A DNA stretch of 64,000 nt from an uncultured Candidatus Rokubacteria bacterium. GTDB taxonomy: Bacteria; Methylomirabilota; Methylomirabilia; Rokubacteriales; DASRDR01. The notes beneath the pieces were generated by a model, which was not told where the DNA came from, did no database searches, and saw only the letters and a program-made list of their open reading frames with translations. A program made the position numbers and the translations under genes. The stretch is taken from assembly GCA_963805625.1 (NCBI GenBank), contig CAWDVE010000011.1, positions 64,001 through 128,000 on the forward strand, in the 5' to 3' direction. Within the stretch, counting starts at the first letter, position 1; each line of letters begins with the position of its first letter. Below are positions 2,875-36,297 of this stretch, in pieces.

Positions 2875-3618
2875 GTGAACGACAAGTCGACGCGGGTGCA
2901 GGCGATGTTCGCGCGCATCGCGCCGCGCTACGACCTCATGAACGCGCTGATGACGGGCGGGCGCGACCGCGCGTGGCGGCGGGCCGCCGCGCGCCTCGCC
3001 GCGCCGCCGGCGGGGAGCCTCGCCCTCGACCTCGCCACCGGCACGGGCGACCTCGCGCTCGCGCTCCTCCGCGAGACCCGGGTGCGAGGCGTGGTGGGCG
3101 TCGACTTCGTCGAGGGGATGCTGCGCCTCGGCCGGGCGAAGCTCGGCACCCTCGGGGAGCGGCGGGTCCGGCTCCTCGCGGGCGACGCGCTGGCACTCCC
3201 GTTCGCCGATGCGAGCTTCGGCTGCGTCGGGTCGGCCTTCCTCCTGCGGAACCTGGCCGACCTGCGGGCCGGTCTCGCCGAGATGCGGCGCGTGACCGCC
3301 CCGGGCGGGAGCGTCGTTGCGCTCGAGATCACGCAGCCGACCCTCCCCGGCTGGCGCCAGGCCTTCCGCCTCTACTTCCACCACGTCGTCCCGGCGGTAG
3401 GGGCGCTGATCGCGGGGAACCGCGAGGCCTACACGTACCTGCCGCAGTCGGTCGACCGCTTCGTGACGCCGGGCGAGCTCGCCCGGCTCATGGAGGCGGT
3501 GGGGCTCCGCGACGTGCGCGTCTGGCGCGTGGGGCTCGGGACCGTGACGATTCACGTCGGTCATGTCGGTCACGCCACTTCCATCGGTCGCGCTGGGCGC
3601 GCGAGCGTCGCGGCCTGA
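2875..3618 (+). CDS. menG: UbiE/MenG demethylmenaquinone methyltransferase
   Basis: MFARIAPRYDLMN, LDLATGTGDLA SAM motif, GDALALPF, AYTYLPQSV; start could be 2860. Confidence 0.92.
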   Translation: MNDKSTRVQAMFARIAPRYDLMNALMTGGRDRAWRRAAARLAAPPAGSLALDLATGTGDLALALLRETRVRGVVGVDFVEGMLRLGRAKLGTLGERRVRLLAGDALALPFADASFGCVGSAFLLRNLADLRAGLAEMRRVTAPGGSVVALEITQPTLPGWRQAFRLYFHHVVPAVGALIAGNREAYTYLPQSVDRFVTPGELARLMEAVGLRDVRVWRVGLGTVTIHVGHVGHATSIGRAGRASVAA

Positions 3619-28140: not shown

Positions 28141-29523
28141 CTACGCCGGGATGACCGCCTTGATCGACGCCCGGACGATCTCCAGCACGCGGTCGATCTG
28201 CTGCTCGGTGATGACGAGCGGTGGCGAAAAGAAGATCTGCTCGGAGAACGTACCGCCCGGCACGGGGTAGCTCCGGATCCGGGTCGCGAACCCGCGCTTC
28301 TCCATGTCCCGGCGGATCCGCAATCCCACCTTCTGATCGGCCGGGAATCCGGCCTTCGTCGTCCGGTCCGAGACGAGCTCCGCGGCGGCGATCAGGCCCT
28401 TGCCGCCCCGCACGTCACCGATGACCGGCAGCTCCTTCTGGAGCTCGAGCAGCCCCTGGTAGAGCCGCGTCCCGAGCCGAGCCGAGCGCTCCCACAGCCG
28501 CTCGCGCTCCATGATCGCGATGTTCGCGAGGCCGACCGCGCAGCACATGGGGTGACCCGAGTAGGTGTAGGCGTGCATCCACCGGTCCTCGGGCTTGACC
28601 GTGTTCATGGTCTCGAAGATGTCGCGCGACACCACGATGCCGCCGAGCGGCGCATAGCCGGACGTCACCGCCTTCGCGAAGGACTGGATGTCCGGCTGGA
28701 CGTTCCAGTGCGTCAGCGCGAACCACTGGCCGGTCCGGCAGAAGCCCGTGATCACCTCATCGCCGATGAACAGCACGTCGTGCTTGGTGCAGATCTCGCG
28801 GATGCGCGGGAAGTAGTCGTCCGGGGGCACGATCACGCCGCCGCCGCCAATGATCGGTTCGGCGATGAACGCCGCCACCGTGTCGGGACCCTCCCGCAGG
28901 ATCGCCTCCTCCAGCTCCCGGGCCGCCGCCTGGCCCACCGTCTCCCCCGTGCGGGCGCCCTGGAAGCGGTACGGGTACGGCGCCTGGATGTGGAGGAAGC
29001 CCGGCACGCGCGGCTCGAACATCTTCCAGTATGGCGCCATGCCGGTGGCGCTCATCGCCTGGAGGGTGACCCCGTGGTAGGCGTTCTGGCGCGCGATCAC
29101 CTTGATCTTGTCCGGCTTCCCCTTGGCCTTCCAGTAGAAGCGGGCGGTCTTGAAGGCGGACTCGTTCGCCTCGGCGCCGCCGCAGGTGAAGAAGACGGCG
29201 GCCATGTTCGGGTAGGAGAGGCTCACGATCTTGGTGGCGAGCTCGGCGGCGGGGATGTTCGCGTTGCCCACGTAGTTCGAGAAGTAGGCGAGCTTCTTCA
29301 TCTGCTCGAAGGCCGCGCGCGCCAGCTCCTCCCGGCCATGCCCCACGCTCACGTTCCAGAGGCCGGCGAGGCCGTCGATGTACTCGTTGCCGTGGATGTC
29401 CTTGATGACCGCGCCGTGGCCCTCCACGATCACGAGCGGCTCGGCCGCCTCCGAGGAATGGTGGAGCGGGTGGATGACGTGTGCCTGGTCGTTCTTGATG
29501 ATGTCGGATGCCGTCATGCTCAT
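28141..29523 (-). CDS. Class III PLP aminotransferase (omega-amino acid/amine transaminase)
   Basis: YIDGLAGLW, GGAEANE, AYHG, FIAEP, DEVITGFCRTG, FAKAVTSGY, TYSGHP. Confidence 0.94.
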   Translation of the reverse strand: MSMTASDIIKNDQAHVIHPLHHSSEAAEPLVIVEGHGAVIKDIHGNEYIDGLAGLWNVSVGHGREELARAAFEQMKKLAYFSNYVGNANIPAAELATKIVSLSYPNMAAVFFTCGGAEANESAFKTARFYWKAKGKPDKIKVIARQNAYHGVTLQAMSATGMAPYWKMFEPRVPGFLHIQAPYPYRFQGARTGETVGQAAARELEEAILREGPDTVAAFIAEPIIGGGGVIVPPDDYFPRIREICTKHDVLFIGDEVITGFCRTGQWFALTHWNVQPDIQSFAKAVTSGYAPLGGIVVSRDIFETMNTVKPEDRWMHAYTYSGHPMCCAVGLANIAIMERERLWERSARLGTRLYQGLLELQKELPVIGDVRGGKGLIAAAELVSDRTTKAGFPADQKVGLRIRRDMEKRGFATRIRSYPVPGGTFSEQIFFSPPLVITEQQIDRVLEIVRASIKAVIPA

Positions 29524-30002
29524 CGAGGGTCCTCCAGAGTTGACACGGTATGGGTTCCACGCGCGCTCGTCAGGTGGGCGCGCCAGTCGCCGGACTCGAC
29601 CCGGGGCCCCCGGCCAGCCGCGGGCCCGAATCGCTCGTTGTACGCGTACACCCAGGCCTCCCGCACCACTCCACCTGCGGCCTGTACCGGCACCGTGCGC
29701 CGCACGTAGAGGCTCCGCGTCTCGTCCGCGGGGTCGTACCACTCCTCCCGGTCCAGGGCCGGCAGCCGGTCCGGCAGGTCCGGGACTTGGTAGAGCTCCC
29801 CGGTCACCCAGCCGCCGTCGTCGAGGACCAGGCCAGGATACTCGCCGAAGTGGTAGAGAGAGCCGCGGATCCGCCCGAGCCCTTCGAGGAGCGCCCCGCC
29901 GAGGAGCGGGCGTCGCGAGAAACCGGTCATCAGCGTTCCATAGGTGAACAGCCGGTCCGGACCCGGAGCGGGACCAGCGCCGGCTGCCGTCACGGCGGAC
30001 AT
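29520..30002 (-). CDS. Gamma-glutamylcyclotransferase family protein
   Basis: LFTYGTL, YPGL, GELY, LDREE, AWVY, SGDW; ATGA overlap with the aminotransferase. Confidence 0.88.
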   Translation of the reverse strand: MSAVTAAGAGPAPGPDRLFTYGTLMTGFSRRPLLGGALLEGLGRIRGSLYHFGEYPGLVLDDGGWVTGELYQVPDLPDRLPALDREEWYDPADETRSLYVRRTVPVQAAGGVVREAWVYAYNERFGPAAGRGPRVESGDWRAHLTSARGTHTVSTLEDPR

Positions 30003-35317: not shown

Positions 35318-35422
35318 TGCGGGACTATAGCCGGCGCCCCGCAGGGCTGACAACGGCCCGAGCGAAGGAGCGGGACCTCCGAGATTACTCCCGCGAGGGC
35401 AGGCCCGTGCGGGGGACTCCTG

Positions 35423-35605
35423 CTAGCGCCGCGAGGCGGAATCAGTCTCGCGGGCCTGCGAATCGCCCGACGACTCCCGTCCGCCGCAGGTCTTGGGCTC
35501 CGTCCCGGAGCCCGGCGCCGGGGGGCGTCAGCCGAGTCCCCGGCGCGTCAGGAGCACGAAGACGACGGTCAGCCCCACGACCGCGAGGATCTGCTCCCAG
35601 CTCAT
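35423..35605 (-). CDS. Tiny single-TM protein; 25 aa to the UGA at 35528-35530, or 60 aa if the UGA is read as Sec
   Basis: GGAGG RBS, ATGA overlap with the upstream gene; MSWEQILAVVGLTVVFVLLTRRGLG-(UGA)-RPPAPGSGTEPKTCGG..RR*; hairpin 15 nt after the UGA. Confidence 0.6.
35495..35513 (-). promoter_or_regulatory. Candidate SECIS hairpin (alternatively a terminator stem)
   Basis: GGGCUCC-GGGAC-GGAGCCC; loop begins 22 nt after the UGA with G; no U-tract. Confidence 0.45.
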
Positions 35606-36297
35606 CGGGCTACCTCCGGCTCCGCGCCGGGATCGATCGGGGCGTCTCCCGCCGCGTTGACCGCCCGCAGCACCGCGTCGACGAACTCGGCTTCGGGCAG
35701 GGCCCCCTCGAACGAGACGCGATCGTTGACGACGGTCTTCGGCACGGCCATGACCATGTAACGCTGCGCGAGATCGGGGAACTCGGTCGCCTCCACGCAG
35801 TCGCCGCGGATCCACTCCGAGGCGACCGCGAGGTGATGCGCCAGGCGCACGGCCCGGGGGCAGTGGGGTCAGGTGGGCGTCGAGAAGACCTGAATGTGGA
35901 CGCGCTCCTTGAGGCCGGCCAGGCGCTCGAGCGTCTCGGCCCCGAGGGACGGCGTGCCCGACGAGGCGACGATCATCGAGTCGATCAGGTTCGTGAACTC
36001 ATAGCCCATCGGGATCCCGAAGAACCGGATGCCGTAGTCGCGGGCGCCCTCCACGACGATCGCGGGCACGCGGTCGATCCCGTAGGCCTCCGCCCGTTCA
36101 CGGTCGATGTGGAGGTTGAGGATCTCCACGGTGATCTGGTCCGAGCACTCCGCGACCTCGCGGACCAGCCGCTCGGTCTCGATGCAGTACTCCGACGCCC
36201 CGAGTTGAGTGGAGAACACGATCAGCTTGACCGGACCCGCAAGCTTCGCGAGCTCGGTCTGGACCGCCGCCCGGTCCGGATCCGTCAGGATCGCCAT
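35602..36297 (-). CDS. Protein-disulfide oxidoreductase (AhpF-NTD/glutaredoxin-like, two Trx folds), selenoprotein with UxxC
   Basis: ORFs 35869..36393 and 35602..35850 are in one frame, separated by TGA at 35869-35871: VFSTPT-U-PHCPRAV, where homologs have TPTCPYC; GIPMGYEF, VEATEFP, VPK. Confidence 0.9.

Follow-up and report, generated by a model that had tools for sequence, protein, structure and literature searches.

The window, meaning the whole stretch of 64,000 nucleotides that was analysed, carries on its minus strand a gene for a protein disulfide oxidoreductase (PDO; 35602-36297) that matches TIGR02187 with 258 bits against a cut-off of 185 and has a UPHC active site, its selenocysteine (Sec) TGA lying at 35871-35869. 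In the parts of a 2026 review that were covered, TIGR02187 PDO is a catalogued selenoprotein family (PMC13188914). No obvious signal peptide was found on this PDO, and its gene contains a weaker SECIS-like hairpin (35841-35857, minus strand; 6 bp with G-U pairs and a CGTGC loop, 17 nt past the UGA). A small open reading frame starts within the PDO stop through an ATGA overlap (35602-35605, minus strand), with a GGAGG ribosome-binding site that lies within the 3' end of the PDO gene, 7 nt 5' of the ATG (35613-35617, minus strand). It runs from 35605 to 35423 on the minus strand as 25 codons, an in-frame TGA (35530-35528), 34 further codons and a TAG, which would give a membrane selenoprotein of 60 residues with Sec26, or a peptide of 25 residues if the UGA is a stop. 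The TGA is a predicted selenocysteine codon from its frame and from its conservation in kin and family. A preliminary description of this DNA had reported a 25-codon frame coupled to a selenoprotein gene, and both the overlap and the ribosome-binding site were verified; it gave no strand, and all features of the small gene and its hairpin proved to lie on the minus strand, the plus strand across 35423-35605 holding an unrelated frame.

The encoded peptide has a hydrophobic segment at residues 6-24 (35534-35590, minus strand; mean Kyte-Doolittle value 1.99, and 2.9 over residues 6-20) that ends in Arg-Arg-Gly-Leu, and the UGA follows directly after the membrane segment and RRGLG, as had been described. 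Basic residues are absent from the N-terminal region and an Arg-Arg pair stands at the end of the hydrophobic segment. Under the positive-inside rule, a basic flank stays cytoplasmic, and the peptide is accordingly predicted from its sequence to form a single transmembrane helix oriented N-out/C-in. The 34 codons past the UGA form a low-complexity tail (35426-35527, minus strand) that carries the SECIS and includes Cys40 (TGC, 35488-35486). No paralogue of the small gene was found in the window's genome, and a plasmid search gave no match. In public RNA runs (4 of 9 runs), seen as assembled contigs only with a word share of 5-8%, cover of the small gene was sparse. Downstream, a promoter scan found a sigma-70-like match (TTGTCA-18-TATAGT; 35324-35353, minus strand) before a nitroreductase gene, beginning 70 nt past the TAG of the small gene, and the nitroreductase gene is probably a separate unit. 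A gamma-glutamyl cyclotransferase (GGCT) gene, which in relatives usually comes next downstream, lies here at 29520-29999 (minus strand), about 5.4 kb from the small gene, with the nitroreductase, PEP carboxykinase and CHASE2-HD genes in between.

We assessed the hairpin downstream of the UGA as a bacterial SECIS. It lies at 35495-35513 on the minus strand (GGGCTCC stem, GGGAC loop, GGAGCCC stem), with a 14-nt spacer and a loop 21 nt past the UGA, and its stem counts 7 bp, or 8 bp with an in-loop G-C pair. In the parts of the review covered, bSECIS elements are limited to a loop of 3-9 nt with a G among the first two positions, a stem of 4-16 bp and a distance of 16-37 nt from the UGA (PMC13188914), and the small-gene hairpin falls within each of these ranges. 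The perfect 7-bp stem, GGGAC loop, SECIS spacing and lack of a U-tract listed in the preliminary description were all found again. Taken alone, its fold z-score is modest (-1.7). Among the 2,446 TGA stops that end long genes of this genome, 59 (2.4%) are followed by a perfect stem of at least 7 bp with a G-led loop, and 22 (0.9%) by one of at least 8 bp. Terminator prediction made no call and no U-tract follows the stem, so the hairpin lacks the form of an intrinsic terminator, the case that would have told against a SECIS. The selD hairpin of this genome is built alike, its 7-bp stem closing a 5-nt loop 19 nt from the UGA.

Across 17 aligned hairpins, 98.5% of 136 cells pair and 4/8 pairs are altered on both sides; none of 500 shuffles was as good and slid alignments paired at 57% or less, and since the sequences are related, the covariation score is not a probability. 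Two-sided stem changes were also seen within the genus, where the UGA-to-loop spacing of all copies (13/13) is 18, 21 or 24 nt and always in frame. The open frame past the UGA was considered as evidence and rejected: TGA accounts for 2,449 of the 3,867 stops in this genome (63%), and at least 34 open codons follow 62% of its ordinary TGA stops (median 51), so the open frame carries no weight and only the hairpin counts.

The Sec machinery was sought in the genome, and selA, selB, selC and selD were all located. While selA scored over its cut-off, selB is represented by a selB-like 640-aa frame adjoining selA that gave two separate matches of 199 and 129 bits, both below cut-off. The tRNA-Sec gene (selC) is present on the same contig and selD is present with its own TGA. 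All 21 genomes of the taxonomic family have selA; its co-occurrence with the small gene was rejected as evidence because selA occurs in 215/251 phylum genomes (the 251-genome tallies, for selA and for the family profile below, include the unpublished genomes G074 and G113, which enter no other result). Separately, a motif scan of G000 gave further candidate Sec genes with hairpins on contigs C1, C4, C10, C13, C17, C21, C24 and C25, of UGSC type and UxxC thioredoxin-like type, many rows of the scan being noise.

We compared the locus with its closest relatives, using the best 30 of the PDO loci; the PDO itself was present in 37 of the 41 genomes searched. A small frame ending in RRG[LR]G-TGA follows the PDO in 13/14 genus loci, with TGA at the site in 13/13 copies and peptide identities of 41-72%. 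As evidence by itself, TGA conservation within the genus was set aside as weak, TGA being 63% of stops and the kin not independent. In the sister genera, a small frame follows the PDO in 5/6 genomes; it is 6 residues longer and ends in RW[VL]LPRxG[VI][PS]T-TGA, and it shares the slot, the MSW start and the hairpin of the window's genus. Homologs downstream of the PDO, one of the checks proposed in the preliminary description, are therefore present in both groups, the gene being absent behind the PDO in one genus locus and one sister locus. In the sixth sister genome (locus L022, G020), the small frame is deleted and the hairpin is kept right after the PDO stop codon. No small frame was found behind the PDO in 11/11 loci of other families in the order, one of which ends 11 nt past the stop.

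Some loci of close relatives depart from the simple overlap. In one (L013 of G014, approximately 2200-2370) and in protein P0013, the PDO lacks a stop and continues in frame into the small frame, a possible two-Sec fusion; a chain of this kind would place the PDO and the Sec across the membrane from each other unless an internal start is used, and the L013 locus retains both a TTG start and a GAGGG site. In four others (L008, L009, L010, L018), short inserted repeats (CACAGGCCG units) part the PDO and the small gene by 54-105 nt, those of L008 and L009 duplicating the PDO 3' end together with the ribosome-binding site.

The peptide proved to be no one-off: it belongs, in shortened form, to a very large unnamed family. 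The family layout is a transmembrane helix, RW[VI]LPxxG[VI]xT, a U/C site and MSGxC, with T-U/C-M-S-G-x-C as the usual motif. A profile built from four peptides of the sister genera matched 54/251 phylum genomes and 45 metagenome loci. Among 75 family loci (some redundant), the site holds TGA in 69, a Cys codon (TGY) in 6 and TAA or TAG in none, one TGA locus having the codon one position later. With duplicates removed, a G-loop stem of at least 6 Watson-Crick pairs stands 18-24 nt past the site in 45/61 TGA forms and 0/5 Cys forms, compared to 1/66 and 1/64 in shifted controls. A 38-sequence profile recovered 784 proteins among 2,819 candidates, and 1,271 clusters were counted at 50% identity. 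The best 120 protein matches have Cys at the site in 99 cases, end just before it in 17, and have W in 3 and R in 1; this ranking favours full-length Cys forms, so the counts are not frequencies. A second Cys at +5 is present in 98 of these 99 Cys forms, and many Cys forms carry extra Cys. Cys variants aligned to the UGA, and the absence of other stops at this position, were among the tests named in the preliminary description, and both were borne out, the window's form being linked to the Cys forms stepwise through the sister genera. The W that some database proteins show at this position is probably a TGA read under another code, as P0042 differs very little from a TGA locus. Two genus-type database proteins have W or R at the Sec site, which counts against the Sec reading.

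Databases keep the family as fragments of 25-32 residues or as hypothetical Cys proteins, the name seen being 'hypothetical protein' and some entries coming from Planctomycetota. Gene-finders do cut such genes at the UGA, as the preliminary description had anticipated. An AlphaFold model of one member has a single confident helix at residues 2-25 and a low-confidence tail, and the ESM Atlas gave as a lead one unnamed, Planctomycetota-leaning cluster (score 0.86). In the tail of a 14-locus sister group, pN/pS was 0.34 over the first five codons and 0.54 over all 20, compared to 1.1 and 1.4 in the other two frames, which indicates purifying selection in frame. Additional members were encountered away from the usual slot. 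L138 (G003 C10) and L139 (G011 C116) hold, near 3100 and away from the PDO, a second full-length member that has both a TGA and a hairpin of its own; the genes ahead of it were judged by eye to be universal-stress-protein-like and CBS-like. At L135 (2468-4563), a member that has Cys-TGA and hardly any conserved tail lies upstream of CdhD-like and ferredoxin genes that resemble hgcA/hgcB.

Membership of the window copy was assessed separately. Its peptide has RRGLG in place of RW[VI]LPxxG[VI]xT, is 6 residues shorter and lacks the +5 Cys, and a family profile built without the window's genus did not recover it in its genome. Compared directly with the Cys family, the genus form reached an hhalign probability of 5.7%; taken stepwise, the values were 93% from genus to sister genera and 99% from sister genera to Cys family. 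Nine of 11 genus peptides scored 7.2-16.2 bits; the 542 shuffles had their 95th percentile at 3.8 and reached 8.7 at most. From the two hhalign steps and from the shared slot, N-terminus and hairpin, we infer that the window copy descends from family members and has been trimmed. The earlier proposal of a 60-residue membrane-anchored Sec peptide agrees with the conserved UGA, with the Cys forms among the homologs, with a hairpin that covaries and with the Sec genes of the genome, and in our judgement UGA26 is very probably read as Sec.

We next asked what such a peptide does beside the PDO. The PDO is directly upstream of the family gene in 28/30 phylum loci, with the GGCT gene usually next; many PDO loci lack the small peptide. 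Outside the lineage, the PDO was not near the family gene in 43/45 metagenome loci (some on short contigs). Two of the best 150 representatives (P0256 and P0172) join the Cys form to a thioredoxin domain that follows it at the C-terminus; both are singletons and one looks frameshifted. A search of 7,992 candidates for longer fused forms found none, and the same search missed both thioredoxin fusions, so this negative result is a weak one. We scanned neighbours in other lineages through 68 ORFs, chosen from 94 predicted ones plus a few added by hand. They were often redox, sulfur or metal-stress genes, and those that recur are RND pumps, YgaP-like TM, DUF302, ArsR, OsmC, AhpC, CMD, rubrerythrin, Fe-S assembly, cytochrome bd and universal stress proteins; many other neighbours were unrelated. 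At L088 (G228), and also at L028, L032 and L035, a peroxiredoxin-like gene with an in-frame TGA lies between the PDO and GGCT genes, and L088 has three consecutive Sec genes.

The PDO synteny, the thioredoxin fusions and the redox-type neighbours lead us to favour a membrane-tethered selenol that is recycled by a thioredoxin-fold partner. SelB would read the hairpin 21 nt past UGA26 and Sec would be inserted, and the helix would place this residue at the cytoplasmic face of the membrane, approximately 5 residues past the helix. With Arg-Arg at its end and the positive-inside rule, the Sec is expected to face the cytoplasm, where the PDO would be. The selenol could then attack an oxidised sulfur species at the membrane, such as a disulfide, a persulfide or polysulfide, or a peroxide-oxidised thiol. 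In a typical family member, the +5 Cys would resolve the product as a U/CxxxxC ring and a thioredoxin-fold protein would re-reduce that ring. As the genus has no +5 Cys and the +14 Cys is optional, here the PDO would reduce the mixed selenenylsulfide directly. Given Sec, a redox role of the peptide is probable. Given both Sec and that role, the case for the PDO as its working partner, based on synteny and the thioredoxin fusions, is evenly poised or leans slightly in favour; the earlier proposal of a partner or substrate of the UxxC oxidoreductase agrees with the gene order and the rare fusions, and the 43/45 metagenome loci away from the PDO weigh against it. Taken whole, a 60-residue single-pass membrane selenoprotein whose selenol is kept reduced by the co-translated PDO is the reading toward which we lean, by a modest degree.

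The neighbour data also bear on a different function for a Sec-containing peptide, as a ligand or sensor of soft metals or metalloids (Hg, As, Cu, Ni) or as a modulator of some membrane transporter or kinase, its place behind the PDO reflecting no more than co-regulation of Sec genes. Several neighbours would suit such a role, including ArsR (2 loci), NikR, RND pumps, HgcA/B-like genes and a two-component pair, as would the extra Cys in many Cys forms and the three Sec genes clustered at L088. However, no one neighbour is general, the Sec would be the sole ligand in 6/13 genus copies, and the thioredoxin fusions and the fixed slot behind the PDO favour thiol redox. We consider this explanation rather unlikely.

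The state of the genus tail raises the question of whether the gene is a decaying remnant in which the UGA is a plain stop, the product a 25-residue membrane peptide, and the hairpin either inherited by descent or an mRNA-stabilising end. Coding conservation past the UGA, present in the family and the sister group, is reduced in the genus to the frame alone: pN/pS is about 1.1 (first 15 codons, 9 copies), indicating no selection at the amino-acid level, and 2/13 tails are frameshifted. The KTCGG Cys at +14 is kept in 7/13 genus copies, the other 6/13 having no tail Cys of any kind; a Cys at +14 or +15 is present in 11/18 copies of this taxonomic family and in 4/5 of the sister genera. We found the 34 open codons and the KTCGG Cys of the preliminary description to be present, yet the open frame is uninformative and this Cys is not the family's partner Cys; from its retention pattern, it is probably an ancestral substitute, yet dispensable. 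Together with the 6-residue deletion, the lost +5 Cys, the L022 genome that keeps the hairpin without the frame, and TGA as the commonest stop, these features are what decay would leave. Against decay, however, TGA is kept in all 13 copies despite the divergence of the peptides, the stem changes on both sides inside the genus and has no U-tract, the UGA-to-loop distance never departs from multiples of 3, and 11/13 copies reach an in-frame stop within 17-36 codons. A remnant is quite improbable in our estimate. The genus has retained the helix with its basic linker, together with the UGA and the hairpin, and the tail would serve mostly as a SECIS carrier. A selenium-sensing leader, whose read-through would carry ribosomes to the next gene (ancestrally the GGCT gene) with the peptide itself minor, accords with a tail stop that overlaps a possible next-gene start (CTGA or ATGA) in 4/31 loci examined and with the GGCT gene following in most sister loci, but it is highly improbable, given that hundreds of Cys forms keep T-C-M-S-G-x-C as protein, needless for a Sec sensor, and that the next gene in the window has its own promoter-like site.

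We then compared the tethered selenol with known systems. In the parts of PMC13188914 covered, genes decoded through bSECIS and SelB share with the small gene an in-frame UGA, an intragenic hairpin, Cys homologs, Sec machinery and a Sec operon partner, but their proteins differ from this one, which lacks a soluble domain and consists of a transmembrane helix, Sec and a disordered tail only. No row of the 119-family table fits the unnamed family by name or motif, and a small membrane partner of TIGR02187 PDO is absent from the table and operon section, as far as these parts of the source extend. KCU-star (NF033934), TsoY (NF047643) and hypothetical DG/DW/DF proteins are likewise small, carry Sec/Cys pairs and are truncated by gene callers, but their motifs are unlike those of the family, and the NCBIfam models gave no match to 38 members at E up to 1. 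The YgaP-like TM (DUF2892, PF11127) is likewise a small membrane protein and a family neighbour in 2 loci, without a Pfam match to the family; it has a Cys near the membrane and two helices, compared to one here. Eukaryotic SELENOK and SELENOS have a single-pass anchor and a Sec in a disordered cytosolic part near the C-terminus. They offer an analogy in working with no claim of homology; the window's gene differs in placing its Sec beside the membrane and its SECIS within the reading frame.

Searches of the small gene and family against NCBIfam (June 2026) and Pfam gave nothing over cut-off, the best match being no better than E 0.015, and the NCBIfam models cited for the families of the review's table likewise drew no match. 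The family was absent from the covered parts of PMC13188914, PMC13326102 and PMC12013277, and the literature listings and abstracts held no description of it. Within the extent of these sources, the family is apparently new to bacterial selenoproteome catalogues, though this is not certain. As a wider proposal, this widespread family of Sec and Cys forms may serve cytoplasmic thioredoxin-fold enzymes as a minimal redox relay of U/CxxxxC type, tethered to the membrane. In Rokubacteria-type soil bacteria it would form a translationally coupled Sec-to-Sec pair with the PDO, and in this genus it would be trimmed to a helix plus one selenol; we hold this tentatively, at slightly under an even chance.

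With 60 residues and one helix, the protein should be easy to synthesise or express, so that a role for Sec at the membrane surface is directly testable, and the natural series of CxxxxC, UxxxxC, Sec alone and thioredoxin fusions is a ready comparison set. The finding extends the bacterial selenoproteome by a family that is apparently common, and the long-known but orphan TIGR02187 selenoprotein gains a candidate partner.
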